Positions 13,723 to 53,921 of a stretch of 64,000 nt of DNA are shown piece after piece (the stretch's first letter is position 1; every line of letters begins with the position of its first letter). The notes under the pieces are model-generated. The model had not been told where the DNA came from and did not search any database. It saw only the letters and a program-made list of their open reading frames with translations. Both the position numbers and the translations under genes were made by a program. The DNA comes from Armatimonadota bacterium. Its GTDB lineage: Bacteria; Sysuimicrobiota; Sysuimicrobiia; Sysuimicrobiales; Sysuimicrobiaceae. The stretch lies in the NCBI GenBank assembly GCA_025060455.1, contig JANXBY010000003.1, forward strand, positions 34,719 to 98,718, written 5' to 3'.

Positions 13723-14412
13723 TTGCTGCGGGGTAAACGCATCCTGGTAACCTCCGGACCCACCCGGGCTCCCCTGGACGCGGTGCGGTTCATCAGCAAC
13801 AAGGGGTCGGGGCGCACCGGCGCCCTGGTGGCGGAGCTGGCCCTGAGGGCGGGGGCGTCGGTGACCTACGTGTACGGCCGGGGAGCCCAGCTGCCCCAGA
13901 TCCGGGCGCGGGGCCGCGACCACCTACGCCTGATCCCCGTCGAGACCGTGGACGACCTGGTGAACGTGTTCCGGGAGGAGCTGCCCACGGGCTACGACGC
14001 CGTGGTGCACCCCATGGCGGTGTTGGACTTCGCGCCCGCGGAGGTGCGGCGGGAGAAGGTGGGGTCGGAGGAGGCGTGGGTGGTGCGGCTGGTGCCAACC
14101 CCGAAGGCCATCCAGCTGGTGAAGGAGCTGAGCCCCCGCACCTTCCTGGTGGGGTTCAAGCTGGAGGTAGGCAAGACCCGGGAGGAGCTGGTGCGCATCG
14201 CCCACGAGTCCCTGGTCCGGAACCAGGCGGACGTAATGGTGGCCAACGACCTGGAGGAGATTGACCGGGGAGTGCACCGGGGTTACTTCGTGGGCCCAGA
14301 CGGACGGGTGTTGCGGGTGGCCGAAGGCAAGGAGGAGATCGCCCGCGCGGTGGTGGAGCTTCTGGAGGAGCGGCTCGACGGACCGTCGGACGGGGCAGGG
14401 AGGACAACATGA
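13723..14412 (+). CDS. coaB: Phosphopantothenate--cysteine ligase domain protein (stand-alone CoaB-like, no CoaC domain)
   Basis: CoaB signature ILVTSGPTRAPLDAVRFISNKGSGRTG. TTG start follows GGGAGGT. Only about 229 aa, so no flavoprotein CoaC half. Confidence 0.65.
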   Translation: MLRGKRILVTSGPTRAPLDAVRFISNKGSGRTGALVAELALRAGASVTYVYGRGAQLPQIRARGRDHLRLIPVETVDDLVNVFREELPTGYDAVVHPMAVLDFAPAEVRREKVGSEEAWVVRLVPTPKAIQLVKELSPRTFLVGFKLEVGKTREELVRIAHESLVRNQADVMVANDLEEIDRGVHRGYFVGPDGRVLRVAEGKEEIARAVVELLEERLDGPSDGAGRTT

Positions 14413-15933: not shown

Positions 15934-16032
15934 GACCGGCCGGAGTCCGCCGGCCCCGCGGCCCAGGCGCTGGCTTCCCTGTTCGTCATATATCCTTGAC
16001 GTAGTTTTTCTATCGTTGCCTAGCCTGCAGCC

Positions 16033-17081
16033 GTGGGGCGGCGGGTGCCGGTGGAGCTGGAAAGCAGGGTGCGCAGGGTCCGGCAGTCCCGGGGCCTGTC
16101 GCAGGCGGAGCTGGCCCGGGCCGTGGGGCTGTCCCCGCAGGCGCTGTCCGCGGTGGAAGCCGGCCGCTACGTGCCGAACACCGCGGTGGCGCTGCGCCTG
16201 GCGCAGGTGCTGGGGTGTGCCGTGGAGGACCTGTTCGTCGGGCTGCCACCTCCACGGTGCAGGTGCTCCTGGCGGAGGAGACACCGGCCACGCGGGTGCG
16301 GGTGGGCCGCATCCGGTACCGGCTGGTAGCCTGGCCCATGCAGGGCGCCTGGGCGTACGCTCCCGCGGACGGCACCGTGGTGGGCCGTGACGGCCTTAAG
16401 GCGAGGGTCGCTGTTGCGGGGGGTGCGCCCGAACGGACCCTGTTTGTGGCCGGATGCGACCCGGCCCTGCGGATCGCGGGGCCTTGGCGGAGGCCACCGG
16501 GCGGGTGCGGGTCCACTGGATTCCCACCGGCAGCGTCCAGGCCCTGCAGGCAGCGGGCAAAGGGCTGGTGCACGTGGCGGGCACCCACCTCCACCCACCT
16601 GGAGACCCGGAGGGCGTGGGGACGATCCAGCGAGCCCTGGGGCGGAGGCGCGGTGGTGGTGACCCTGGCGAGGTGGGTGGAGGGCCTCCTGCTGCGGCCG
16701 GGCGTGCGGGTCCGTAGCGCCGAGGATCTCCTCCGCAGGGGCCTGCGGGTGGTGAACCGCGAGCAGGGCTCAGGAAGCTGTGTGGTTTTTGACCAGTGGC
16801 TCCGCAGCTTGGCAGTGCCCCCAGAAAAGGTGTCCGGCTACGGCCGTGAGTTGTCTACCCACCTTGCGGTGGCGGAGGCGGTGGCCGCGGGGTTTGCGGA
16901 CTTGGGCCCCGGGGTGCTGCCGGTAGCCCGGTTGTACGGCCTGGACTTCCTGCCCCTGACGGAGCCGTGCTACGACCTGGTGATTCCCCGGGACCTGGCG
17001 GACCACGAACCGGTTCGGGTCCTCCTGGAGGTGATCAGCCCAACACCCGCAGGGACCACGCGCAAGCTGGGGGTCCGATGA
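16033..17081 (+). pseudogene. XRE-type HTH + PBP_like (PF12727-type) regulator upstream of modAB, apparently disrupted by three frameshifts
   Basis: HTH ([47 protein letters not shown]) is in frame 1 up to about 16250. PBP_like segments then run in frame 0 (TLFVAGCDPALRIAG), frame 2 (ALAEATGRVRVHWIPTGSVQALQAAGKGLVHVAGTHLH) and frame 0 again (VVVTLARW...NREQGSGS...LDFLPLTEPCYDLVIPRD). Its last codons overlap the modA start (ATGA). Confidence 0.5.
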
Positions 17082-17854
17082 CGCGATTGGTGGCCTTGGC
17101 ATGTGTGGTCCTGCTGGCGGGGTACGCGGCGCCTGCGCCCGCGCAGCCCGCGCTGCTGGTGGCCGCGGCCGCCGACCTGAGGTATGCCTTCGAGGAGATC
17201 GGGGCTGCGTTCCACTCCCGGGGCGGCGTCCCCATCACCTTCTCCTTCGGTTCGTCGGGCCAGCTGGCTTTTCAGGTGGAGCACGGGGCACCCTTCGACG
17301 CGTTCTTCTCCGCCAACGAGGCGTTCGTCCACCGGCTGGCCGAACGCGGCCTCGTCGTACCGGACACGGTGCAGCTGTACGCCCTCGGGCGCATCGTCCT
17401 GTGGGTGCGCCGTGAAAGCGGCCTTCCCGTGGAGCGGGGGTTGAACGTCTTGACAGACCCCCGGGTGCGGTACGTGGCTCTCGCCAACCCGCAGCACGCG
17501 CCCTACGGGGAAGCCGCCCGTCAGGCCCTTCTGCGTTCCAGGCTGTACGAACGGCTGCGGCCGAAGCTGGTGTACGGAGAGAACGTGAACCAGACCCTGC
17601 AGCTGGTTCAGTCGGGAAACGCGGACGTGGGGATCGTAGCCCTGTCCCTGGCCCTGGCGCCGCCGGTATCCCGCGGAGGGCGGTTCTGGCTTGTTCCCCA
17701 ACGACTGCACGAACCCATCCGCCAGGCTGCAGGCGTGGTCACCCGTTCAGTGCGTCCGCGGGAGGCCCGTGCTTTCCTGGCGTTCGTCAACGGCCCGGAG
17801 GGCCGACCGGTGATGCGGCGGTACGGGTTTGTCCTCCCCGGGGAGGGTCCGTAG
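17078..17854 (+). CDS. modA: Molybdate ABC transporter substrate-binding protein
   Basis: Signal peptide followed by the ModA fold motifs (FSFGSSGQLAFQVEHGAPFDAFFSAN). ATG overlaps the upstream stop. Confidence 0.8.
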   Translation: MTRLVALACVVLLAGYAAPAPAQPALLVAAAADLRYAFEEIGAAFHSRGGVPITFSFGSSGQLAFQVEHGAPFDAFFSANEAFVHRLAERGLVVPDTVQLYALGRIVLWVRRESGLPVERGLNVLTDPRVRYVALANPQHAPYGEAARQALLRSRLYERLRPKLVYGENVNQTLQLVQSGNADVGIVALSLALAPPVSRGGRFWLVPQRLHEPIRQAAGVVTRSVRPREARAFLAFVNGPEGRPVMRRYGFVLPGEGP

Positions 17855-17887
17855 CTGGACGCAGCGCCCCTTTGGATCTCCCTGAAG

Positions 17888-18511
17888 GTGGCAACTGCGG
17901 CCACGCTGGTGGCGGGCGTGGTCGGCGTCGGGCTGGCGTACGTGCTGGCGGCGTGCAGATTTCCCGGCCGCGGTGTCCTGGAGGCGCTTACGTCGTTACC
18001 GTTGACCCTGCCGCCCACGGTGCTGGGGTACTACCTCCTGGTCCTCTTGGGCCGCCGGAGCCCGCTGGGAGCCTGGGTGGAGAGCACGTTTGGAGTGCCT
18101 TTGGTGTTCACCTGGCAGGGAGCCGTGGTGGCTGCCGCGGTGCCCTCGCTCCCGCTCGTGGTGCGGACGGTGCGGGCGGCGTTCGCGGAGGTGGCCGCGG
18201 AGGTGGTGGAGGCCGCCCGGATGGACGGCGCGGGCTGGTGGCACCAGTTCGCGTACGTGCTTCTCCCCCTGGCGCGCCGGGGCCTTGCCGCCGGGCTCTC
18301 GCTGGCCTTCGCGCGCGCGTTGGGGGACTTCGGGACCACCCTCATGGTGGCCGGCAACATCCCCGGCCGCACGCAGACCATGCCCATCGCCCTGTACGAC
18401 GCGGTGCAGGCCGGACGGTGGGACGCCGCGGCGGCCCTCGCCGCCGTCCTGGGGGCGGTGGCGGTGGCGGTGGTGGTGGCTGTGGGGCGGCTCGGAGAGC
18501 GGGTCGTCTGA
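17888..18511 (+). CDS. modB: Molybdate ABC transporter permease
   Basis: ModB motifs (PLVFTWQGAVVAAAVPSLPLVVRTV, EAARMDGAGWW). The conserved N-terminal PLWISLKVA is encoded just upstream of the first canonical start, so the real start may be a non-canonical codon near 17855. No modC follows. Confidence 0.7.
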   Translation: MATAATLVAGVVGVGLAYVLAACRFPGRGVLEALTSLPLTLPPTVLGYYLLVLLGRRSPLGAWVESTFGVPLVFTWQGAVVAAAVPSLPLVVRTVRAAFAEVAAEVVEAARMDGAGWWHQFAYVLLPLARRGLAAGLSLAFARALGDFGTTLMVAGNIPGRTQTMPIALYDAVQAGRWDAAAALAAVLGAVAVAVVVAVGRLGERVV

Positions 18512-18550: not shown

Positions 18551-18593
18551 CTGCCCCCCCCCCAGGCCGAACGGCAGCGGGGAGGGGTCGGGG
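18551..18593. terminator. Candidate bidirectional terminator hairpin with C10 tract between convergent modB and Memo-like genes
   Basis: CTGCC-C10-AGGCCGAAC-GGCAG hairpin followed by a G-rich run (CGGGGAGGGGTCGGGG), in an 82-nt convergent intergenic gap. Confidence 0.25.
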
Positions 18594-29729: not shown

Positions 29730-29787
29730 GCCGCGGTGTAGTAGGAGTTCCCCGTCGAGCCGGTAGAAAAGCAGGCGAACGGACGTT

Positions 29788-29796
29788 TGCTACAAT
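29788..29796 (+). promoter_or_regulatory. Extended -10 element TGCTACAAT for dnaB
   Basis: TGnTACAAT lies 12 nt upstream of the dnaB ATG region. RBS GGAGGT lies 5 nt before ATG 29808. Confidence 0.35.
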
Positions 29797-29807
29797 GGAG
29801 GTCGGAC

Positions 29808-32183
29808 ATGGCTGTGGCCGTTGACCGGGTCCCGCCCCAGAGCCTGGAGGCGGAGATGGGCGTCCTGGGATCCATGCTGCTGGACCGGGACGCCATCGCC
29901 ACCGTGGTGGAGCTGCTGCGTCCCGAGGACTTCTACCGGGAGGGGCACCGCCTGGTGTACTCCGCCATCGTGGAGTTGTTCGAACGCGGGGAGCCCGTGG
30001 ATCTGATCACCGTCACCGACCGCCTGCGCGACCTGGGCAAGCTGGAGGAGGCCGGGGGGGCCGCGTATGTGTCCAGCCTCCTCAACGCGGTGCCCACCGC
30101 GGCCAACGCGGAGTACTACGCGCGCATCGTGCTGCAGAAGTCCATGCTGCGGGCCCTGATCCGCGTGGGCACCCAGATCGCCCACATGGGCTTCGAGGGC
30201 GAAGAGGACGTCGAAGTGCTCGTGGACCGCGCAGAGCGGCTGGTGTTTGAGATCGCCAACCGCCGCATGCGGCAGGACTTCCAGCCCCTCCGGGACCTGA
30301 TCCGGGAAACCATGGAGCGGCTGGACAGCCACTACGAGCGGGGCATGATCACGGGCGTGCCCACCGGGTTCGTGGACCTGGACGAGCTCACAGGCGGCCT
30401 GCAGCGGGGCGACCTCGTGATCGTGGCCGCCCGGCCGTCCATGGGTAAGTGCCTGAAGTACGACAGCCTCGTGGTGGATCCCCGCACGGGACTCCTGCGC
30501 ACCATCGAGGAGATGGTGCGGTCCGGCGAGGGCACGGTCCTCACCCTGGACGGCGGCCGGCTGCGGGAGGCCAAGCCCTCCCACTTCGTGGACGACGGGG
30601 TCAAGCCCACCTTCCGGGTCCGCACCGCCCTTGGCCGCGAGGTGGAGGTCACCGCCACCCACCCGTTCCTGACGCCGGAAGGCTGGAAGCCCCTGGCCTC
30701 CCTGAGGCCCGGCCACTTCGTGGCCGTACCCGCGCGCATCCCCGTGTTCGGAACGCTGGACCTGCCGGGCGCAGAGGTGCGGATCATGGCGTACCTGAGC
30801 GCGGGTCGGCTGCCGGCTCAGCCGGAGGTGAGCCGGGACTTCTTGGATGCGGCCTCCGCGGCCGCCGCGGTGCGTGCCTCCCGCGTGCCTGCCCTGGTCG
30901 GCGCCCTCGGGGTGCGGGCGCACGGAGAGGGCCCGCAGCCCCAGGAAGCCGCCGCGGTGGTGGCGGAGTTCCTGCAGGACTACCCGGAGCTGGCGGAGCC
31001 GGACCACCGGCGGCGGCTGCCACCCGCGGCCTTCCAGCTGAACCGGGCCAAGCTGTGCCTGCTGCTGCGGTGCCTGCTCGGCTGCGTGGCCACCGTCCAG
31101 GGCGAACCCGACCGCTGGGGAGCGCCGGATGCGGACGCCTCCCAGGAGTTTTCGATCCGGGCGGAGCTGCCCAACGCCACCATGGCCCGACAGGTGCAGC
31201 ACCTCCTCCTGCGCCTGGGCGTGCTCAGCGCGTGGGACGGCCAGCGGGCGTTGGAGGTGAGGGGCACGAATGCCCTGCAGCTGCTCCGCACCTGTGGCGT
31301 CCTGGGCTGGGAACGGCTCCGGCAGTGGGCGCGCTACGCCCCCGAGCCGCTTTTGCCGGAGCCGGACGTGGTGTGGGACCCCATCGTGTCCGTGGAGTAC
31401 ACGGGCGACCACCCCGTGTACGACCTCACCGTGCCCGACACGCACAACTTCGTGGCCAACGACGTGTGCGTCCACAACACCACCTTCTGCCTGAACATCG
31501 CGCAGCACGCCGCGGTGGAGCACCGGGTGCCCGTGGCCATCTTCTCCCTGGAAACGAGCGCGGAGCAGCTGGTGCAGCGCATGCTGTGCGCTCAGGCGCA
31601 GGTAGACGGCCAGCGCCTGCGCCGCGGGTACCTGTCGGAGGCCGACTGGCGACGCCTCACCCGGGCCATGGGGGCCCTGGTGGAGGCGCCCATCTTCATC
31701 GACGACTCTTCCAACCTGTCCGTGGTGGAGATGCGCGCCAAGTCCCGGAAGCTGAAGGCGGAGCACGGGCTCGGGCTCATCGTGGTGGACTACATCCAGC
31801 TCATCCAGTCCTACAAGCGGACGGAGAACCGTACCCAGGAGCTCAGCGAGATCGCGCGGGCCATCAAGTCCCTGGCCAAAGAGCTGGACGTGCCCATCCT
31901 GGCCGTGTCCCAGCTGTCCCGGGCCGCAGAACAGGGAGGGTCCAAGATCCCCATGCTGAGCCACCTGCGGGAATCCGGGGAGCTGGAGCAGGTCGCAGAC
32001 CTGGTCCTGTTCCTGTACCGGGAGGACTACTACGACCCCGAACGCGCGCGCCGGGAGGGCAAGGAGAACGTGGCCCTGGTGCGGGTGGCCAAGCACCGCA
32101 ACGGCCCGACCGACGACCTCGAGTTGTTCTTCCACAAGGAGACCTCGCGGTTCGCGAACCTGGACACCCGGCACGGCGCCTGA
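29808..32183 (+). CDS. dnaB: Replicative DNA helicase DnaB (DnaC in Bacillus nomenclature), interrupted by an in-frame intein
   Basis: DnaB N-domain (SLEAEMGVLGSMLLD), P-loop split as GDLVIVAARPSMGK | intein | TTFCLNIAQ, then RecA-like motifs (LGLIVVDYIQLI, ILAVSQLSRA). The mature helicase is about 448 aa, and 791 aa with the intein. Confidence 0.9.
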   Translation: MAVAVDRVPPQSLEAEMGVLGSMLLDRDAIATVVELLRPEDFYREGHRLVYSAIVELFERGEPVDLITVTDRLRDLGKLEEAGGAAYVSSLLNAVPTAANAEYYARIVLQKSMLRALIRVGTQIAHMGFEGEEDVEVLVDRAERLVFEIANRRMRQDFQPLRDLIRETMERLDSHYERGMITGVPTGFVDLDELTGGLQRGDLVIVAARPSMGKCLKYDSLVVDPRTGLLRTIEEMVRSGEGTVLTLDGGRLREAKPSHFVDDGVKPTFRVRTALGREVEVTATHPFLTPEGWKPLASLRPGHFVAVPARIPVFGTLDLPGAEVRIMAYLSAGRLPAQPEVSRDFLDAASAAAAVRASRVPALVGALGVRAHGEGPQPQEAAAVVAEFLQDYPELAEPDHRRRLPPAAFQLNRAKLCLLLRCLLGCVATVQGEPDRWGAPDADASQEFSIRAELPNATMARQVQHLLLRLGVLSAWDGQRALEVRGTNALQLLRTCGVLGWERLRQWARYAPEPLLPEPDVVWDPIVSVEYTGDHPVYDLTVPDTHNFVANDVCVHNTTFCLNIAQHAAVEHRVPVAIFSLETSAEQLVQRMLCAQAQVDGQRLRRGYLSEADWRRLTRAMGALVEAPIFIDDSSNLSVVEMRAKSRKLKAEHGLGLIVVDYIQLIQSYKRTENRTQELSEIARAIKSLAKELDVPILAVSQLSRAAEQGGSKIPMLSHLRESGELEQVADLVLFLYREDYYDPERARREGKENVALVRVAKHRNGPTDDLELFFHKETSRFANLDTRHGA
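30450..31478 (+). mobile_element. DnaB intein (343 aa) inserted in the Walker A P-loop between GK and T
   Basis: Begins with Cys (CLKYDSLV) right after GK and ends with HN before the Thr +1 residue. Hint blocks present: TATHPFLT, VYDLTVPDTHNFVAN, VCVHN. The central region has only degenerate LAGLIDADG-like segments. Confidence 0.8.
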
Positions 32184-45007: not shown

Positions 45008-45838
45008 ATGCGGTACCGGTTGCTGGTGACCGACGTGGACGGCACGCTGTTGCCGCCTGACCGGAGGCTTTTGCCCTCGGTCCGGGAGGCGGTGCAGGCG
45101 GCCCAGGAGCGGGGCGCGCGCGTGTGCCTGGCCACCGGCCGCATGTGGCGGTCGGTGCAGCCGTACGTGGAGGCCGTGGGGGCCGACAGCCCCGTGGTCC
45201 TCTACAACGGAGCGGTGGTGTACGACTTCCGGGAAGGGCGCGTGCTCGAGCGGCACACCCTGGACCAGGAGGGCCTGCAGTGTGCCCTGGAGGTGCTGCG
45301 GGAGTTTCCCGAGGTACGGCCCCACCTGTTCGCGGACGAGCAGGTGTACGTGGACCGGCAGGACGAGCAGAGCCGGGCGTACCTGGAGCGCGACGGGATC
45401 ACCGCGGAGGAGGTCGGCGACCTCGCGGTGCACCTGCCGTCCGAAGCCGTTAAGGTCCTGGTGGTGGGGCCACCCGACCGGCTGGCGGTGGTGGACGCCG
45501 AGCTGGCTCGGCGCGCTCCCCAGGTCCGGCGGGTGTTCTCGGAGCGCAACTTCCTGGAGCTGTTGCCTGCAGGGGTCTCCAAGGGGAGCGCCCTGCGGAC
45601 CGTCTGTGCCGCCGTGGGTGTTCGGCCGGAGGAGGCGGTGGCGGTGGGCGACAACCCCAACGACCTGGAGATGCTGGAGGCGGCGGGAGTGGGGGTGGCG
45701 GTGTCTGGTGCGCACCCGGCGTTGCTGACGGTGGCGGACTACGTGACGCGCGCCGGACCCGGGCAGGCTATCGTGGAGGTCGTGGAGCGGTTCTTCTTGG
45801 ACGGCCAGGCGTACGTGAAACTCACGGATGGGAGGTGA
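45008..45838 (+). CDS. HAD-superfamily hydrolase, Cof-like phosphatase
   Basis: HAD motif I LLVTDVDGTLL and motif IV GDNPNDLEM. The track ORF is over-extended upstream to 44438. Confidence 0.75.
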   Translation: MRYRLLVTDVDGTLLPPDRRLLPSVREAVQAAQERGARVCLATGRMWRSVQPYVEAVGADSPVVLYNGAVVYDFREGRVLERHTLDQEGLQCALEVLREFPEVRPHLFADEQVYVDRQDEQSRAYLERDGITAEEVGDLAVHLPSEAVKVLVVGPPDRLAVVDAELARRAPQVRRVFSERNFLELLPAGVSKGSALRTVCAAVGVRPEEAVAVGDNPNDLEMLEAAGVGVAVSGAHPALLTVADYVTRAGPGQAIVEVVERFFLDGQAYVKLTDGR

Positions 45839-45842
45839 GGTC

Positions 45843-46862
45843 GTGAGGCGGTGGTCAGTGCTGTTGGTGGGTATGGCGGTGCTCGTGGTGGGCTCGGTGC
45901 CGGTGGGTGCGCAGGCCCGCCGGATCGTGGTGTACTCTGCACTCCCCGACCTGGAGACGTCCCTGATCAACCGGGAGTTCACCCGCAGGACGGGGATCGC
46001 GGTGGAGGCCCTCAGCGTAGCCGCCGCGGGCACCTTGGCGGCCCGGATCCGGGCGGAGCGGGACCGTCCGCGGGCCGACGTGTTCGTGGGCGGGTCCGCG
46101 GACTTCCACGCACCCCTGGCCCGGGAAGGCCTCCTGGTTCCCTACCGGTCTCCCGTGGCACGGGAGGCACGGGTCAGCCCCGCCTTCTTGGACCGGGACG
46201 GGTACTGGCACGGGTGGTACCTCGGGATCCTGTCCATCATCGTGAACACCGAGCGGTGGGACCGGGAGATGGCTCCGCGGCGGGTTCCCAAGCCCGCCAC
46301 CTGGGACGACCTCCTGCGGCCGGAGTTCCGGGGACACTTCATCATGCCCAGCCCGGTGACCACCGGGGCCGGCTACATCTTCGTGGCCGGGCAGATCTTC
46401 CGCCTGGGGGAAGACCGGGCGTGGGCGTACCTGCGCGAGCTGAACCGCAACGCAGCCCAGTACACGCCCACCGCACCGGGCACCATCACCCTGCTGGAAC
46501 GGGGGGAGGCCGTCGTGGCCATGATGTGGGCGCACGAGGGGATCGGGGCGAGGCGGGTGCGCTTCCAGCCACTGGAGGTGATCGTGCCGCCCGACACCGC
46601 CTTTGAGATCGGCGCGGTCTCCATCCTGCGGGGCGGGCCCAACCCGGAGGGCGCCCGCGCGTACGTGGACTTTCTCATGACCCGCACGCCGCAGGACATC
46701 AACGCCCGCTACGGGTTCCGGTACCCGGTGCGGACGGACGTGGAGCCTCCCGCAGGCGCGCCGCCCTTCGAGTCGGTGAAGTTCGTCCGGTACGACCGGG
46801 AGTGGGCGATCACCAACGCGGAGCGGGTGCGGGAGCGGTGGACCCGGGAGATCGGCCGGTAG
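45843..46862 (+). CDS. ABC transporter substrate-binding protein (iron(III)/FbpA-type family 1 SBP)
   Basis: Signal peptide and SBP fold. GTG 45843 follows GGGAGGTGAGG, overlapping the HAD stop. Confidence 0.7.
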   Translation: MRRWSVLLVGMAVLVVGSVPVGAQARRIVVYSALPDLETSLINREFTRRTGIAVEALSVAAAGTLAARIRAERDRPRADVFVGGSADFHAPLAREGLLVPYRSPVAREARVSPAFLDRDGYWHGWYLGILSIIVNTERWDREMAPRRVPKPATWDDLLRPEFRGHFIMPSPVTTGAGYIFVAGQIFRLGEDRAWAYLRELNRNAAQYTPTAPGTITLLERGEAVVAMMWAHEGIGARRVRFQPLEVIVPPDTAFEIGAVSILRGGPNPEGARAYVDFLMTRTPQDINARYGFRYPVRTDVEPPAGAPPFESVKFVRYDREWAITNAERVRERWTREIGR

Positions 46863-46876
46863 TCGAATCCGGGCGG

Positions 46877-48529
46877 ATGCTGGCTGGCCGCGTGGGCGCC
46901 TTGGTTCCGGGGGTCGAGGCCCGGAGGCAGCTGGCCGACCCAGGCCTCGCCCTCGCGTTCCTCGCGGGAGCCTTCGCCCTGGCGGTGTTCGTGCTGTACC
47001 CCACGGTGCGCGTGCTGGCTTACCCGAGCCTGCAGGACTACCTGAGCATCCCGCACAGCGTCCGGTGGGTGCAGGCAGCCCGCAACAGCCTCCTGAGCGC
47101 CGTGCTGTCCACCACCACGGCGGTGGCGGTCGGCCTGGCCTTCGCCTTTGCCACCACCCGCCCGGACGTGCCCGGGAGCCGGTTCTTCCGTGCCGTGGCT
47201 CTGCTGCCGCTGTTCGCGCCGCCGTTCATGGTGGCGTTCTCGTACATCCTGCTGTTCGGCCGGCAGGGCCTGGTAACCCGCCACCTGCTGGGCCTGGACG
47301 TGAACATCTTCGGCCCCCACGGGCTGTGGCTGGTGCAGACGGTGGCCTTCTTCCCCCTGGCCATGCTGGTGATCGTAGGCGTGCTGGAGAGCATCAGTCC
47401 CAGCCTGGAGCAGGCGGCGCGGAACCTGGGCGCGGACGACTGGCAGGTGACCCGCACCGTGACCCTGGCCCTGGCGCGGCCGGGGATCGCGGGAGCGGCC
47501 CTGGTCGTGGCCATCTCGGTTCTGGCGGACTTCGGCAACGCCGTCGTGATCGCAGGCGGCTGGCCCCTGCTGGCCACGGAGGCGTGGTTCCGAATGGAGG
47601 GCATGGCGGACCTGCGAGGCGCCTCCCTCGTGGTCGCCATGCTGGTGGTCCCCACCACGGCCCTGTTCCTGCTGGAACGGTACTGGGTCGGCCGGAAGCG
47701 GTACACCACCGTGACCGGACGCGGGGGACGGCTGGAGCGCCCGCCCACGTACCCGCCCCTCAAGTGGGCGAGTTTCGCCGTATGCGGGGTGACCAGCATC
47801 CTGGTGTTGCTGGTGTACCTGGGCGTGGTGGCGGGGGCCTTCACCGCGGTGTGGGGACGGGACTGGTCGTTCACCCTGGACCACTGGCGCCTGGCTGCAG
47901 ACCGGACTCCGTCCCTGTGGGCGAGCCTCCGGGTGGCCGCCGGCGCGGGCGCGGTCACCGCGGTGGCGGGCATCCTCCTGGCGTTCCTCGCGGGCCGTCC
48001 GCTGCCCCTGCGAAGGGCCCTGGACTTCCTGGCGGTGTTGCCAGGCGCGCTGCCGGGGGTGTTCGTGGGCGTGGGCTTCGTGTTGGCCTTCAACCGGCCT
48101 CCCCTGGAGCTGGTGGGAACACCGTGGATCCTCATCCTGGCCCTGGCCTTCTGGCACCTGCCCCTGGGGTACCAGGCGGCGGCGGCCCAGCTGCAACAGA
48201 TCGACCGGTCCATCGAGGAGGCGGCCAGCAACCTGGGCGCCCGGGGCCTGCACCTCCTGCGGGATGTCTACCTGCCCCTTTTGAGCCGCGCGTTCGTGGA
48301 GGGGTTCACGGTCTCTTTCGTGCGTGCGGTGACCAACGTGAGCATCGCGGTGTTCCTCGTCTCCCCGGGCAACGTGGTGGCCACCTTCGCCATCCTCAAC
48401 ATGATCGGAAACGGGATCTGGGGCGGGGCTGCCGCCCTCACCACCATGCTCCTGCTGGTGACCTTCGCGGTCCTGGCCGGCGCCCGACTGGTAGTGGGGC
48501 GGGCCCTCCGCCCGGCGGGGGTGGGGTAG
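46877..48529 (+). CDS. ABC transporter permease, two-domain iron(III)-type (FbpB-like)
   Basis: About 550 aa with two MetI-like domains. Confidence 0.8.
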   Translation: MLAGRVGALVPGVEARRQLADPGLALAFLAGAFALAVFVLYPTVRVLAYPSLQDYLSIPHSVRWVQAARNSLLSAVLSTTTAVAVGLAFAFATTRPDVPGSRFFRAVALLPLFAPPFMVAFSYILLFGRQGLVTRHLLGLDVNIFGPHGLWLVQTVAFFPLAMLVIVGVLESISPSLEQAARNLGADDWQVTRTVTLALARPGIAGAALVVAISVLADFGNAVVIAGGWPLLATEAWFRMEGMADLRGASLVVAMLVVPTTALFLLERYWVGRKRYTTVTGRGGRLERPPTYPPLKWASFAVCGVTSILVLLVYLGVVAGAFTAVWGRDWSFTLDHWRLAADRTPSLWASLRVAAGAGAVTAVAGILLAFLAGRPLPLRRALDFLAVLPGALPGVFVGVGFVLAFNRPPLELVGTPWILILALAFWHLPLGYQAAAAQLQQIDRSIEEAASNLGARGLHLLRDVYLPLLSRAFVEGFTVSFVRAVTNVSIAVFLVSPGNVVATFAILNMIGNGIWGGAAALTTMLLLVTFAVLAGARLVVGRALRPAGVG

Positions 48530-48532
48530 GCG

Positions 48533-49582
48533 ATGGCGGTGCACCTCCGATTGGTGGACGTGGTCAAGCGGTTCGGCGCCACCACCGCGGTGGACGGCGT
48601 TTCCCTGGATGTCGAGGAAGGCTGCTTTTTCACCCTCCTGGGTCCTTCCGGCTGCGGGAAGACAACCCTGCTGCGCGTGGTGGCGGGATTCCACCTGCCC
48701 GACCGGGGAGAGGTGTTCTTACGGGACCGGCGGATCACCCACCTGCCCCCGCAAGCCCGGGGGACCGCGATGGTGTTCCAGGAGTACGCCCTGTTCCCCC
48801 ACATGACGGTGGAGGAAAACGTGGGCTACGGCCTGCGCATGCGGCGGGTCCCCGCAGGCCAGGCGCGGGAGCGTGTGCGGCGGGTGTTGGAGTTGGTCGG
48901 GCTGGTGGGTCAGGAGCACAAGTACCCGCACCAGCTCAGCGGCGGCCAGCAGCAGCGGGTGGCCCTGGCCCGGGCGCTGGTGGTGGAGCCGGAGGTGTTG
49001 CTCCTGGACGAGCCCCTCAGCAACCTGGACGCAAAGCTGCGGCTGCGGGTCCGCGAGGAGCTGCGGGAGCTCCAGAGGCGTCTCGGGCAGACCACCCTGT
49101 ACGTGACCCACGACCAGGAGGAGGCCCTGGCCCTTTCGGACCGCGTGGCGGTGATGAACGCAGGCCGGGTGCTCCAGGTGGGAACCCCAGAGGAAGTCTA
49201 CCTGCGCCCGCGGAACCGCTTCGTGGCGGAGTTCGTGGGCATGGCCAACTTCGTGCGGGCCCGGTGGGTGGGTCCCGGGCGGGTGCAGGCCGGCGGCATA
49301 GTGCTCCGGGTGGGCGAGGGGAGGACCTCCGGAGGCGACGTGCTGTTGGCGATCCGGCCGGAGGAAGTCCGGGTGCGGACGGAGCCCGGGGACGGTGGCC
49401 CTAACCTCCTCCAGGGCCGTGTGCAGTCGGTCACCTTCCTCGGGCCGGTCCGGCGGTGTACCGTGGAAACAGACGGGCTGCGGTGGGTGGTGGACGTGCA
49501 GCCCGACGTCCGGGTGGAGGCGGCTCAGGAGGTTTACCTGGAGGTGCCGCCCGAGCGGCTGCGCGTGGTGGAAGAAGCATAG
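48533..49582 (+). CDS. ABC transporter ATP-binding protein (FbpC/PotA-like)
   Basis: Walker A GPSGCGKTT, signature LSGGQQQRVALARAL, Walker B LLLDEPLSNLD, and a C-terminal TOBE-like domain. Confidence 0.85.
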   Translation: MAVHLRLVDVVKRFGATTAVDGVSLDVEEGCFFTLLGPSGCGKTTLLRVVAGFHLPDRGEVFLRDRRITHLPPQARGTAMVFQEYALFPHMTVEENVGYGLRMRRVPAGQARERVRRVLELVGLVGQEHKYPHQLSGGQQQRVALARALVVEPEVLLLDEPLSNLDAKLRLRVREELRELQRRLGQTTLYVTHDQEEALALSDRVAVMNAGRVLQVGTPEEVYLRPRNRFVAEFVGMANFVRARWVGPGRVQAGGIVLRVGEGRTSGGDVLLAIRPEEVRVRTEPGDGGPNLLQGRVQSVTFLGPVRRCTVETDGLRWVVDVQPDVRVEAAQEVYLEVPPERLRVVEEA

Positions 49583-49615
49583 GCCGGTCAGTCACATCGG
49601 GAGGGGGGATTCACA

Positions 49616-50635
49616 GTGCGCAGAGCGTGGCTGCTGATTCTCGGTCTGTTGTTGGTGGTGCCCGCGGGATCCGGGGCAGGCCCCGCGCAGCGAGTGGTGG
49701 TGCTGTGTAGCCCGAACCCCGCGTGGTGTGACGCCGTCAAGGAGGAGTTCCCCAAGGCGACGGGAATCGCCCTGGACTACGTGCGGCTGAGCTCCGGTGA
49801 AGGGCTGGCCCGCCTTCGGGCGGAGCGGCGCAACCCCAGCTTCGACGTGTGGTTTGGCGGGACCGGTGACCCGCACATGGTGGCCTTCGAGGAGGGGCTT
49901 ACGGAGGCGTACCGGCCGCGGAGCTGGAACGACCTGCGGCCGGAACTGCGGGAGGCCGTGGGCGGGAAGTACATCCCCCTGTACGCGGGGATCCTGGGCT
50001 GGGCCCTGAACGAGCGGGTGTTGCGAGAGCGGAACGCCCCGGTCCCGAGGACGTGGAAGGACCTGGCGGACCCGCGCTACCGGGGCCTGGTGGCCTACCC
50101 GAACCCGAACACCTCCGGGACGGGCTACACCATGCTGGCCACCCTGGTCCAGCTGTACGGGGAGCAGCAGGCGTTTGAGCTGCTGAAGCAGATCCACCGG
50201 AACGTGGCGGAGTACACCCGCAGCGGTGCCGCGCCGGGCCAGCTCACCGGGCGCGGGGAGGTGGCGGTGGGCATCACGTTCATCCACGACGCCGTGGACC
50301 AGGTGCTGAAGGGGTTCCCCATCAGCTACGGGGCGCCCCGGGACGGCACGGGCTACGAGATCGGGGGCCTGAGTTTGGTGAAGGGAGCTCCGAACCGCAC
50401 CGCCGCGGTGACCTTCATCGAGTGGGCCCTCACTCCCGAGGCGCAGCGCCTTGGGCCGGAGCGGGGCCAGTCCTACCAGATCCCGTCCAACAGCAAGACC
50501 CCCATCCCGCCCGTGGCGCCGCGGTTTGAGGCTTTCCGGGTGATCAAGTACGACTTCCTGAAGTACGGCAGTGCCGCGGTCCGCGACCGGCTCGTGAAGC
50601 GTTGGACGGACGAGGTGTTCCCGCTGCCGAAGTAG
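49616..50635 (+). CDS. ABC transporter substrate-binding protein (second family 1 SBP)
   Basis: Signal peptide MRRAWLLILGLLLVVPAGSGAG and SBP fold. Paralogous to the SBP at 45843. Confidence 0.7.
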   Translation: MRRAWLLILGLLLVVPAGSGAGPAQRVVVLCSPNPAWCDAVKEEFPKATGIALDYVRLSSGEGLARLRAERRNPSFDVWFGGTGDPHMVAFEEGLTEAYRPRSWNDLRPELREAVGGKYIPLYAGILGWALNERVLRERNAPVPRTWKDLADPRYRGLVAYPNPNTSGTGYTMLATLVQLYGEQQAFELLKQIHRNVAEYTRSGAAPGQLTGRGEVAVGITFIHDAVDQVLKGFPISYGAPRDGTGYEIGGLSLVKGAPNRTAAVTFIEWALTPEAQRLGPERGQSYQIPSNSKTPIPPVAPRFEAFRVIKYDFLKYGSAAVRDRLVKRWTDEVFPLPK

Positions 50636-50640
50636 CGGAC

Positions 50641-52860
50641 GTGGCCCGGGCCGTCGCGCTCCCTCAGACCCGGTGGGCGGCCCAGCCGGCGGTGGCCGCG
50701 TGGGCCGCCGCGACCGTGCTCGCCGCCGCGGCACTGCCGTGGGGCCGCGCGGGCCGCGACCTGGGATCCTGGCTGTGGGACTCCACAGGCGTTGTGCTAG
50801 CGTCGGGTTCCCTCCTGGCGGCAGGCGTTCTGCTGGCCTCCTTCGCCGTTCTCCTGGCAGGGCTGTGGCCCGCGCCGGAGCGCACCCGCGGGGTGGCGCT
50901 AGCGGCCTTCGGAGCGTGCGGGATGGCGCTGTCCGGCCTGCTCCTCGGGGTGCGGGGCACGCCCACAGGGCCGGCCGGCGTCCTGGCACCCCTGGGGTTC
51001 TTGACCCTCACGGGCTTCGGGCTTTCGTCCTCCGGTCGATGGTTTGTAGACCCGTTCCTGTCCGCCGCGGTGCTCTGGGCCGCGGCCTTCGTGGCGTTGT
51101 TCATCCTGCTCCCCCTGGCCTCGGTGGTGGTGGCCAGCGTGTGGGTGGACGGCCGCTTCACCCTAGAGGTGGTGCACCGGACCCTGACCTCGCCTGCCTT
51201 CCTCGCCCTCGACCACCCCGGGACGCCGCACAACGAGCTCGCGGTGGCGGCCGCGGTGGGCTTGGCGGTGGCGGTGGGGACCTTGGTCCTCGGATGGTAC
51301 CTCAGGTGGAGCCGCCGGAGCCTTCCCGCGGGCGGGGCGGCCGGCCTCGCCGCAGCCGCACTGGCGAGCCTGTACCTGGGGTTTGGGGCCTTCCGCAACA
51401 GCCTCCTGCTCGCGGTGGTGGTGGGCGCGGTGTCTACGGCCCTGGGGTTCGCGTTTGCGCTCCTTTCGGAACGGTCGCAGCTGCCCACGCGCCGCCTGTT
51501 GGGGACGCTGTCGGCCCTCCCCATCATCACGCCGCCCTTCGTGTTGGGGATCGCCATGCTGTACCTGTTCGGCCGGCGTGGGTTCGTGACGTACCGCCTC
51601 CTGGGAGTTTCCACGGACGTGTTCTTCGGACCGTTGGGGGTAGCGGTGGCCCAGGTGCTGGCGTACACGCCCATCGCGTACCTGGTCCTGGTGGGCGTGG
51701 TCCGAGCGCTGGACGCGAGCCTGGAGGAGGCGGCGCAGACCCTGGGCGCCTCGCCCTGGCACCTGGTGCGCACGGTTATCTGGCCCCTCGCGCGCCCCGG
51801 CCTCGCGAACGCGTTCCTCCTGGTGGCCATCGAGAGTCTGGCGGACTTCGCCAACCCCATCGTGGTGGGCGGCGGAAAGCCGTTTTTGGCCACCGAGGTG
51901 TTCTTCGCCATCGTGGGCCGGTATAACCCGCACGAGGCGGCCACCTACGGGGCGGTGCTGCTGGCCCTCACCCTGACCGTGTTCGTGTTTCAGCAGCGGT
52001 GGTTGGGTGGGGCGTTCTACGTCACCGTCACGGGCCGTCCCACGGGTGCTCGGCCGCAGCCCCTGCCGCTGTGGCTGGACTGGGCCCTGTCCGCGGTGTT
52101 CGTGGTGTGGATGGTAGTGGTGGTCCTGCTGTACGGGTCGGTGTTCGTGGGGGCGGTGACGCGCCTGTGGGGATTCGACTACACCTTCACCCTGCGTCAC
52201 CTGCAGGACCTCCACCCGCAGGGCTGGCAGGTCCTGCGGACCACGGTGCAGCTGTCTGCGTACGCCGCGGTGCCCTCCGTGGTGGTGGGGTTTCTGATCG
52301 GCTACCTGGTGAACCGGGTGGACTTTCCCGGCCGGCGGGCGCTGGAGTTCAGCTCCATGCTGTCGTTCGCCACGCCGGGGACCGTCATGGGGATCGGGTA
52401 CGTGCTGGCCTTCAACCAGGGGCCGTTGCTGCTCACGGGCACGGAGCTGGTGATCGTGCTGGCCTTCGTGTTCCGCAACATGCCAGTGGCCATCCGGGCC
52501 GCGGTGGCCGCCTTGGAGCAGATCGACCGCTCTTTGGAGGAGGCCAGCACGATGCTCCGGGCGGGTGCGAGTACCACGTTGCGGCGGGTGGTGGCACCCC
52601 TCGCCCGGTCTGCCCTCCTGTCCGGGCTGGTGTTCGCGTTCGTGCGGGCCATGACGGCGGTCAGCCAGGTGATCTTCCTCATCACGCCGCAGCACAACCT
52701 GGCCACCACCCAGATCCTGTCGTACCTGGAGTACGGCAGTCAGGGTCGGGGGGCCGCCCTGGCATCCGTCCTGACGCTGCTCCTGGTGACCGTGGTGGCG
52801 TCCCTCCAGGCATTGAGCCGGCGCCTGGATCCCAGGACGGCCCAGCTGGGGGCGGGGTGA
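50641..52860 (+). CDS. ABC transporter permease, two-domain iron(III)-type with extra N-terminal TM region
   Basis: About 739 aa with two MetI-like domains (PLARPGLANAFLLVAIESLADF and a second copy). GTG start at 50641. Confidence 0.75.
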   Translation: MARAVALPQTRWAAQPAVAAWAAATVLAAAALPWGRAGRDLGSWLWDSTGVVLASGSLLAAGVLLASFAVLLAGLWPAPERTRGVALAAFGACGMALSGLLLGVRGTPTGPAGVLAPLGFLTLTGFGLSSSGRWFVDPFLSAAVLWAAAFVALFILLPLASVVVASVWVDGRFTLEVVHRTLTSPAFLALDHPGTPHNELAVAAAVGLAVAVGTLVLGWYLRWSRRSLPAGGAAGLAAAALASLYLGFGAFRNSLLLAVVVGAVSTALGFAFALLSERSQLPTRRLLGTLSALPIITPPFVLGIAMLYLFGRRGFVTYRLLGVSTDVFFGPLGVAVAQVLAYTPIAYLVLVGVVRALDASLEEAAQTLGASPWHLVRTVIWPLARPGLANAFLLVAIESLADFANPIVVGGGKPFLATEVFFAIVGRYNPHEAATYGAVLLALTLTVFVFQQRWLGGAFYVTVTGRPTGARPQPLPLWLDWALSAVFVVWMVVVVLLYGSVFVGAVTRLWGFDYTFTLRHLQDLHPQGWQVLRTTVQLSAYAAVPSVVVGFLIGYLVNRVDFPGRRALEFSSMLSFATPGTVMGIGYVLAFNQGPLLLTGTELVIVLAFVFRNMPVAIRAAVAALEQIDRSLEEASTMLRAGASTTLRRVVAPLARSALLSGLVFAFVRAMTAVSQVIFLITPQHNLATTQILSYLEYGSQGRGAALASVLTLLLVTVVASLQALSRRLDPRTAQLGAG

Positions 52861-53921
52861 ATGCCGTGGCGGAGGGCGTGCCCGTCCGTCTCGAGGGCGT
52901 CACCAAGCGCTTCGGCGCGGTGTTGGCGGTCGACTCCGTGGACCTGCACGTCCCGCCGGGTAAGCTGGTGACGCTGTTGGGGCCGTCGGGGTGCGGCAAG
53001 ACCACTACCCTGCGCCTCGTGGCGGGCTTGGAGCGCCCCACCGCGGGCCGCGTGTGGATCGCAGACGAGGACGTGACGGACCTGCCCGCGGCACGGCGCG
53101 GGGTGACCATGGTGTTCCAGTCCTACGCCCTGTTCCCCCACCTCACGGTGTTTGAGAACGTGGCGTACGGGCTGCGGGTGCAGCGGCTCCCGGCAGCAGA
53201 AGTCCGGCGCCGGGTGATGGAGGCGCTGGAGCTGGTGGGGCTTCCGGAGACCGCGGAGCGCTACCCGGCGCAGCTCAGCGGCGGGCAGCAGCAGCGGGTG
53301 GCGCTGGCGCGGGCGCTGGTGATGCAACCCCGCGTCCTCCTGTTCGACGAACCCCTCAGCAACCTGGACGCGAAGCTGCGGCGGAGGGTGCGGGCGGAGA
53401 TCCGGATGCTGCAGCAGCGGCTCGGGATCACGAGCCTGTACGTCACCCACGACCAGGCGGAGGCGCTGGCCCTGTCCGACGTGGTGGTGGTGATGAACCA
53501 GGGGCGCGTGGAGCAGGTGGGGATCCCGGAGGAGGTGTACCGTCGGCCGAGGACGCGGTTTGTGGCCGACTTCATCGGGGAGGCCAACCTCTTGCCGGCC
53601 ACCTTCTGGGAGGGTGCGGTGGAGGTGGCCAGCTACCGCTTCCCCGTGGAGCAGGAGGAGGTGCGGGACGGGCCGGTGACCGTGATGGTGCGGCCGGAGG
53701 CGGTGGTGGTGTCGCAAGACGCCTCCGGCCTGCCCGGAGTGGTCCGGACCGTGTTCTTCATGGGCATGACCACGGAGCTGCTGGTAGACACGCCGGCGGG
53801 GGAGGTGCTGGCCACCCAACCGTACCGGGCAGACCGGAGGATCGTGCCGGGAGAGCAGGTGCGCCTGCGCTTCGAACCGGCCGGTGTGTACCTGCTGCCC
53901 GCCGAAGACGGGAGGGGCTAG
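52857..53921 (+). CDS. ABC transporter ATP-binding protein (second FbpC/PotA-like)
   Basis: GPSGCGKTT, LSGGQQQRVALARAL, LLFDEPLSNLD. GTGA overlap with the permease stop. Confidence 0.85.
   Translation: MNAVAEGVPVRLEGVTKRFGAVLAVDSVDLHVPPGKLVTLLGPSGCGKTTTLRLVAGLERPTAGRVWIADEDVTDLPAARRGVTMVFQSYALFPHLTVFENVAYGLRVQRLPAAEVRRRVMEALELVGLPETAERYPAQLSGGQQQRVALARALVMQPRVLLFDEPLSNLDAKLRRRVRAEIRMLQQRLGITSLYVTHDQAEALALSDVVVVMNQGRVEQVGIPEEVYRRPRTRFVADFIGEANLLPATFWEGAVEVASYRFPVEQEEVRDGPVTVMVRPEAVVVSQDASGLPGVVRTVFFMGMTTELLVDTPAGEVLATQPYRADRRIVPGEQVRLRFEPAGVYLLPAEDGRG

Follow-up and report, generated by a model that had tools for sequence, protein, structure and literature searches.

The regulator gene that precedes modA and modB in the window (the whole stretch of DNA analyzed here, 64 kb in length) is probably a real and recent pseudogene rather than the result of a local assembly error. 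This reading is favored because the neighboring genes are unbroken, the homopolymers are clean, radical changes have occurred at conserved residues, and a 45-nt deletion of a predicted helix comes in addition to three small frame-breaking deletions. Only slightly less firmly, we favor the joint explanation that a one-component Mo/W regulator was recently inactivated and that Mo/W control of the intact modAB genes would have been lost with it.

In the region 16033-17081 of the forward strand, three overlapping ORFs were found, each in another frame, and the recognizable domains pass through them along frames 1, 0, 2, and 0 (Table 1), a path far beyond chance. The first ORF contains a complete XRE-type HTH domain (Pfam HTH_3, PF01381; 57.6 bits at a cut-off of 23, residues 13-67), in which the substitution R35P alters the conserved SRQ start of the recognition helix. 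The PBP_like domain (PF12727) is split over two frames, neither of them shared with the HTH domain, whereas members of the family are encoded by one ORF of 357-425 aa. The GC content of the regulator stretch, 0.71-0.74, is ordinary, the nearby values being 0.68-0.76. The stop codon TGA at 17079-17081 overlaps the modA start codon ATG at 17078 (ATGA). The original prediction had described an HTH and PBP_like regulator of a molybdate locus carrying three frameshifts along the same frame path and overlapping the modA start; the frames agree both with the Pfam matches and with the alignment to an intact ortholog, and the overlap lies at the positions just given. As the sequence stands, the window copy cannot give a full-length family protein because of the three interruptions, the lost C-terminal helix, and the replacements of conserved residues.

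The closest homolog of the stitched translation, among 384 homologs found, is P0001, a protein of 365 aa with 83% amino acid identity after frame repair. The contig that encodes it, L001, is ~90% identical to the window in DNA and carries the regulator as one intact 365-aa ORF. It is syntenic with the window over ~20 kb at 88-94% DNA identity, the common gene order being DFP, CMD, MetE-like, regulator, modA, modB, convergent Memo, and MFS. The lesions were placed by DNA alignment of the window to this intact ortholog (Table 1). Both 1-nt deletions proposed originally were recovered, the second exactly at the suggested G-run GCGGGGCC near 16475. The third shift, which had been taken for a 1-nt insertion, is a 2-nt deletion, since all homologs have one codon more at this site. 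The 45-nt deletion had been missed. It takes out GGRRFRQELSAIGGYD, corresponding to P0001 residues ~337-352 and holding the GRRFRQEL..GGYD helix, which is predicted as helix 339-348 in the P0001 model (pLDDT 90.8). Comparison with 20 relatives shows R339, L345, G350, and D352 to be invariant in this stretch and four other residues to be nearly invariant; the window protein is left with 8 conserved columns gapped. The window gene has 1049 nt versus 1098 nt in L001, and the deficit of 49 equals the sum of the four lesions (1 + 1 + 2 + 45).

Table 1. Segments of the interrupted regulator, its lesions relative to the intact ortholog, the upstream elements, and the transporter genes of the window
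Feature	Position	Strand	Description
Candidate promoter and putative operator	15991-16026	+	Conserved in the window and L001-L008
Direct repeat TATCCTTGAC	15991-16000	+	Holds the -35-like TTGAC
Direct repeat TATCGTTGCC	16011-16020	+	
TAGCCT	16021-16026	+	~7 nt before the GTG start
ORF, frame 1	16033-16329	+	98 aa; residues 1-70 XRE-type HTH, then 28 out-of-frame residues and a stop
Lesion 1	16239-16243 (~16240)	+	-1 nt, TCCGGAC in L001 versus TCGGGC in the window; linker after HTH; frame 1 to 0
Segment, frame 0	16243-16476	+	Linker beta-domain and start of PBP_like (…FVAGCDPALRI)
Lesion 2	16476/16477	+	-1 nt, GCCGGGG to GCGGGG; first helix of PBP_like; frame 0 to 2
Segment, frame 2	16478-16649	+	PBP_like profile positions 4-47 (…VHWIPTGSVQAL…HVAGTHLHPPGDPEG…); within ORF 16454-16717
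Lesion 3	16649/16650	+	-2 nt (CCC to C), GCCCGCGG to GCGCGG; frame 2 to 0
Segment, frame 0	16650-17081	+	PBP_like profile positions 60-192; within ORF 16215-17081
Lesion 4	~17038/17039	+	Junction of a clean 45-nt in-frame deletion
modA, molybdate-binding periplasmic protein	17078-17854	+	Intact; start overlaps the regulator stop
modB, permease	17888-18511	+	Intact; TIGR02141 212.7 bits versus cut-off 182.6, profile 7-207 of 208
ABC_tran+TOBE_2 ATPases	48533-49582 and 52932-53921		~30 kb downstream; belong to SBP_bac_6 importers

Judged from its distribution among relatives, the intact regulator is the ancestral state, because the gene is whole in L001 and L081, which are independently assembled sequences of the sister species with 98.7% identity to one another, and also in the next relatives and in the closest database proteins. 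Of the next relatives, six match the regulator in one piece and near full length, and the seventh, L006, ends at a contig edge; the 31 closest database proteins (P0001-P0031) are all full length, 357-425 aa. The close loci L001-L008 come from hot-spring MAGs assigned to Candidatus Geohabitans, Sysuimicrobium, Tepidifontimicrobium, and Fervidifonticultor (Sysuimicrobiota/CSP1-3). One continuous ORF in a related strain, which the original prediction would have taken as evidence against the frameshifts, was indeed found in L001 and L081, and the alignment with the orthologous HTH-PBP regulator of L001 allowed the lesions to be mapped. However, an intact relative shows only that the ancestor was intact, not that the window sequence is wrong, and it does not decide whether the window contig is correct.

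The most serious alternative is a local sequencing or assembly artifact, that is, unpolished indels or a mosaic of strain variants in a 1-kb stretch, with the gene intact in the organism; we consider it rather unlikely. The nearest relatives are all MAGs, as the window probably is too, and consensus quality in such assemblies can vary locally; moreover, no second copy of the broken allele was found in the protein collection, among the GTDB representatives, or in the JGI metagenomes. The three small lesions all shorten C-runs before G, which a technical error could produce as well, but these runs consist of only 2-3 C, and an artifact acting on them would have to strike three times among the 39 short C(2-3)G sites of the regulator and never among the ~2260 others (2302 such sites occur in the window). 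It would also have spared all 34 homopolymers of 6-10 nt in the window, which are unproblematic and mostly lie inside genes reading through. No uncompensated frameshift occurs in the other 20 genes that the window and L001 have in common, which amount to ~17.5 kb of coding sequence. Their coding indels are multiples of three, or lie at a stop codon, or are compensated within 10 nt, as in the -1/+1 pairs relative to L001 in modA (17551/17557) and in Memo (19488/19497). Outside the region shared with L001, most ORFs scanned have Pfam domains of essentially full length. Thus the earlier statement that all other genes read cleanly holds for the 20 shared genes and, by Pfam coverage, for most of the other ORFs scanned.

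The possibility raised originally that a GC-rich stretch carries homopolymer errors found no support in this comparison. The homopolymer-error model was rejected because of the clean long runs and the shortness of the affected ones, and a locally extreme GC content because of values within the nearby range. A general or homopolymer-length-dependent error process is therefore not supported, and since the damage is confined, the homopolymers are clean, and the GC content is ordinary, any artifact would have to be strictly local. Furthermore, a clean in-frame deletion of 45 nt, by which a helix containing four invariant residues is lost, is not an error of the homopolymer kind, and together with the radical replacements of conserved residues it would be atypical of consensus errors. 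From these observations we infer that the lesions have a biological and not a technical cause.

The substitution patterns bear on both readings. Among the columns with at least 90% conservation, the frame-repaired window protein departs from the family at ten. P0001 shares four of these departures, and six are found in the window only (R to P in the HTH domain, R to C twice, R to Q, A to L, and V to I); at such columns, a single replacement is peculiar to P0001. In an amino acid relative-rate test with seven outgroup loci, 17 changes were unique to the window and 6 to L001 (p = 0.035), and nine neighboring genes were balanced in the same test. The relative-rate test and the count of conserved columns lean to relaxation, whereas the nucleotide data give no clear signal. 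The branch-wise counts for the regulator are S = 20 and N = 23 on the window branch, and S = 12 and N = 12 on the sister branch; for a long-dead gene, N:S of roughly 2.7:1 is expected, so relaxed selection is not clearly seen in these counts. In pairwise dN/dS, the regulator (0.25) does not exceed the intact modA (0.26); with modB (0.20) these are the three highest values, those of the flanking genes being from 0 to 0.17. Since N/S on the window branch is far from ~2.7:1, either the inactivation is recent or the lesions are not biological, and the non-neutral character of the substitutions is thus also a point in favor of the artifact. The regulator has thus not been evolving neutrally for a long time, and if the gene is a pseudogene, it is a young one.

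The intact regulator of the relatives consists of three parts, namely an XRE-type HTH domain, a small beta linker domain, and a domain with the type-II periplasmic-binding-protein fold (PBP_like). A search of solved structures by sequence yielded no PBP_like relative, the only matches being XRE HTH domains, and the fold was examined with the AlphaFold model of P0001 (TM-scores normalized to the target). The best TM matches of the model, 7tav (0.75-0.76), 4rxl (0.71), 3gzg (0.68), and the tungstate-binding TupA 3lr1 (0.65), are YvgL-like or ModA-type oxyanion binders and TupA; the same fold search also returns phosphate, sulfonate, and amino acid binders with similar E-values. Of the 40 loci examined, 38 have a modA/modB-type binding protein and/or permease in linkage with the regulator; in L001-L008 the linked genes are modA-modB itself, and most of L009-L040 have related SBP/permease genes. 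Because of the modeled fold and the fixed position before modA-modB, the cytoplasmic PBP_like domain is predicted to bind most likely molybdate or tungstate. The name given to P0001 in JGI is 'molybdate-binding protein/DNA-binding XRE family transcriptional regulator', and the NCBI name for HTH_3 + PBP_like proteins is 'substrate-binding domain-containing protein'. In the relatives, the reductive glycine pathway depends on a Mo/W formate dehydrogenase (PMC11604079), and the control of Mo/W uptake is therefore physiologically relevant.

Upstream of the GTG start, the window and L001-L008 share a conserved block of the form ATCCTTGAC…CTATCGTT.CCTA.CCTG, which contains two direct repeats of the consensus TATCSTTGMC, spaced by 20 nt. 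The repeats overlap a -35-like TTGAC element, and 12 nt separate their end from the start codon. The two sites are the only occurrences of this consensus in 64 kb versus 0.09 expected, a count that is circular, as the motif was derived from the same place. A scan with the sigma-70 consensus found no promoter, and the putative operator and promoter are defined by conservation. The mRNA would probably be near-leaderless because of the short distance between TAGCCT and the start codon. In the simplest model, the oxyanion state of the sensor would switch HTH binding to the pair of direct repeats that covers the promoter of the operon itself, such that repression would follow when the sensor, loaded with the oxyanion, binds these repeats. 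The regulator-modA-modB transcript would then be autoregulated, with repression probably when the oxyanion is plentiful.

If the lesions are real, the deletions of 1, 1, 2, and 45 nt would have destroyed the sensor, and the translatable product would be reduced to a 98-aa HTH stub carrying R35P, so the Mo/W-responsive control would most likely be lost. In addition, ribosomes would halt ~750 nt before modA, which would end any translational coupling. As a further speculation, to which we give little weight, the lineage-wide regulator-modA-modB unit may be a working importer that borrows a shared ATPase, and the loss of the sensor may be adaptive to the Mo/W regime of hot springs, through constitutive modAB or through the HTH stub.

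A functional remodeling of the gene, in which the 98-aa HTH-only product would act as a sensor-less, constitutive DNA-binder at the conserved operator or recoding would bypass the frameshifts so that a full protein is still produced, seems highly improbable. The native start, the conserved promoter/operator block, and the entire HTH domain have been kept, and the stub ORF is open over 98 codons; however, the stub carries R35P in the SRQ start of its recognition helix, and three shifts that differ in sign or size, together with a deleted helix, are beyond any known recoding mechanism. Such an arrangement occurs in none of the ~40 relatives.

The transporter genes themselves are intact. The modA product scores 204.8 bits with TIGR01256 (cut-off 62.5) over the full profile and covers positions 1-226 of 227 in SBP_bac_11; both modA and modB pass their cut-offs, as expected from the original description of the two genes as intact. 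No ABC ATPase gene follows modB, the next gene being the convergent Memo gene. The original prediction had a convergent gene begin 83 nt after modB; the gene is there, and it ends rather than begins at this side, 82 nt after modB, the gap between them including a C10 run. None of the proteins encoded in the 64-kb window reaches the cut-off of 285 for modC (TIGR02142). As candidates for an orphan modC in the window, two ABC_tran+TOBE_2 ATPases were considered and rejected, as they score 173.6 and 189.2 against this cut-off and lie in SBP_bac_6 importer operons of their own.

The absence of modC, reported correctly in the original prediction, had been read as a possible sign of loss. In a motif-based screen, all eight close loci (L001-L008) carry regulator-modA-modB without an ATPase within 6 kb downstream, and the same screen found the ATPase-less arrangement in ten more distant Chloroflexota-type loci and an ATPase of the 236-aa class directly after the permease in the loci of Binatia, 'delta proteobacteria', and Nitrospirales. 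Because all eight close relatives share it, the ATPase-less arrangement is ancestral, and by these gene orders the lack of modC is conserved throughout the lineage and is not a decay of the window genome. The ATPase for modAB would have to be supplied from elsewhere throughout the lineage. Therefore, the earlier idea of a pseudogene in a decaying locus is favored in its first part only: that the whole molybdate locus is decaying, with the regulator dead, modC lost, and modAB next, is scarcely credible, for although the regulator is broken, modC is neither adjacent nor above the cut-off in the window, and the dN/dS of modA and modB is the highest among the intact genes compared, both genes are full length and score above their equivalog cut-offs, their N/S is no different on the sister branch, which has kept an intact regulator, and the relatives depend on the Mo/W formate dehydrogenase of the reductive glycine pathway (PMC11604079).

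The regulator in the window belongs, in damaged form, to a subfamily for which annotation already exists. It shares with the one-component HTH_3 + PBP_like proteins the domain order, the start, the promoter block, the position before modA-modB, and the overlap of stop and start codons, and differs from them by the three interruptions, the absent C-terminal helix, and the replaced conserved residues. To our knowledge, the subfamily combining an XRE HTH domain with PF12727, annotated and widespread upstream of modAB, is experimentally uncharacterized. Functional analogs would be ModE and the TunR proteins, the latter reportedly described by Kazakov et al. in 2013 as tungstate-responsive regulators of sulfate-reducing bacteria. 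The TunR proteins reportedly also combine a cytoplasmic PBP_like oxyanion sensor with a DNA-binding domain and control molybdate/tungstate transport. The DNA-binding domain of TunR is, however, said to be of the excisionase/MerR-like HTH_17 type, in contrast to the XRE-type HTH_3 of the window; HTH_17 is absent from the Pfam hits, and the phylum is another one.

ModE of E. coli is the classical molybdate-responsive repressor of modABC and consists of a winged HTH and two Mop/TOBE domains. The likeness to ModE would be limited to the presumed role, oxyanion-dependent transcriptional control of a mod operon. No Pfam or NCBIfam match to a ModE-type HTH or to Mop/TOBE domains was obtained in any fragment or in P0001, and since it is without a Mop/TOBE domain, the regulator is not ModE. 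The PBP_like domain is also known from fusions with MoeA, such as DVU0951 of Desulfovibrio (PMC10102598). In P0001, this domain matches positions 416-642 of the 647 in the PRK14498 profile ('molybdopterin biosynthesis protein'), a homology that ties this domain to Mo/W metabolism; P0001 has an HTH domain instead of the MoeA catalytic domain, and its whole-protein score is 149.9 against a cut-off of 534.

The pattern of damage resembles that of other bacterial pseudogenes formed by small deletions, with several independent lesions, all of them deletions, in one gene among neighbors under purifying selection. Lesions of bacterial pseudogenes are usually deletions, and a deletional bias in bacterial genomes was reportedly described by Mira, Ochman, and Moran in 2001. 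The window gene differs in that its substitutions do not yet look neutral, and as a pseudogene it would thus be young. In annotation, the regulator should be labeled a probable pseudogene or be flagged, and the mod locus should not be considered incomplete for the missing modC, as this is the normal state in the lineage. A single pseudogene, or a single assembly error, is ordinary in a MAG, and the by-products of mild interest are the candidate operator and the conserved modAB operon that lacks an ATPase. The conserved pair of direct repeats of the XRE-type HTH-PBP_like regulators provides a minor lead for specialists, and a second one concerns the ATPase that serves modAB in Sysuimicrobiota and thermophilic Chloroflexota.

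The absence of an ABC ATPase gene adjoining the regulator, modA, and modB, or related genes for a solute-binding protein and permease, is common to the regulator loci L001 to L018; this ATPase-less arrangement is conserved in Sysuimicrobiota and in thermophilic Chloroflexota-type relatives. In more distant lineages of the comparison set (L019 to L040), the ATPase gene is located directly 3' of the permease gene.

When compared with the syntenic sister contig L001, the regulator, modA, and modB (16033-18511) show dS of 0.29-0.44 and dN/dS of 0.20-0.26, as against dS of 0.13-0.34 (mostly below 0.27) and dN/dS of 0-0.17 for the flanking genes. Because both values exceed those of most flanking genes, our data suggest that this locus is either faster-evolving or recombined.

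Two direct repeats, TATCCTTGAC and TATCGTTGCC, overlie a TTGAC -35 element just 5' of the GTG start of the regulator gene. This block probably serves as an operator combined with a near-leaderless promoter.

Further differences from L001 were observed nearby. modB and the convergent Memo gene are 82 nt apart, and the intervening DNA contains the longest homopolymer of the window, C10 at 18554-18563, around which the two contigs differ by several small indels. Compensated -1/+1 indel pairs were found in modA (17551/17557) and Memo (19488/19497); with spacings of 6-9 nt, they recode two or three codons and leave the genes unbroken. Upstream of the regulator, a DUF3800 gene encoding 235 aa is present between the DFP and CMD genes in L001 (7348-8283) and wholly absent from the window at 14381-14399, a difference of ~935 nt.

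Elsewhere in the window, the Pfam scan identified an intein in the replicative helicase DnaB, the DnaB_C domain being matched as two stretches. Both of the tandem ABC importers combine a double-permease protein with a binding protein of the SBP_bac_6 family and an ATPase of the ABC_tran+TOBE_2 type. Their best NCBIfam matches are to ferric, PhnT2, and PotA types, and none of these matches reaches its cut-off. Another cluster, containing two AP_endonuc_2 genes, KduI/IolB, a PfkB kinase, an IclR regulator, a TPP enzyme (IolD-like), and GFO_IDH_MocA, looks like one for myo-inositol catabolism.

Features of the window and the basis of their assignment
Feature	Position	Strand	Basis
Direct repeats, 20 nt apart	15991-16026		Conservation, common to L001-L008 (close Sysuimicrobiota loci)
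Intein_splicing, inserted in DnaB_C (DnaB residues 238-564)	29787-32183 (DnaB)	+	Pfam
Myo-inositol catabolism-like cluster	~37210-44981		Gene content
Two tandem ABC importers	45828-53921	+	Pfam and NCBIfam
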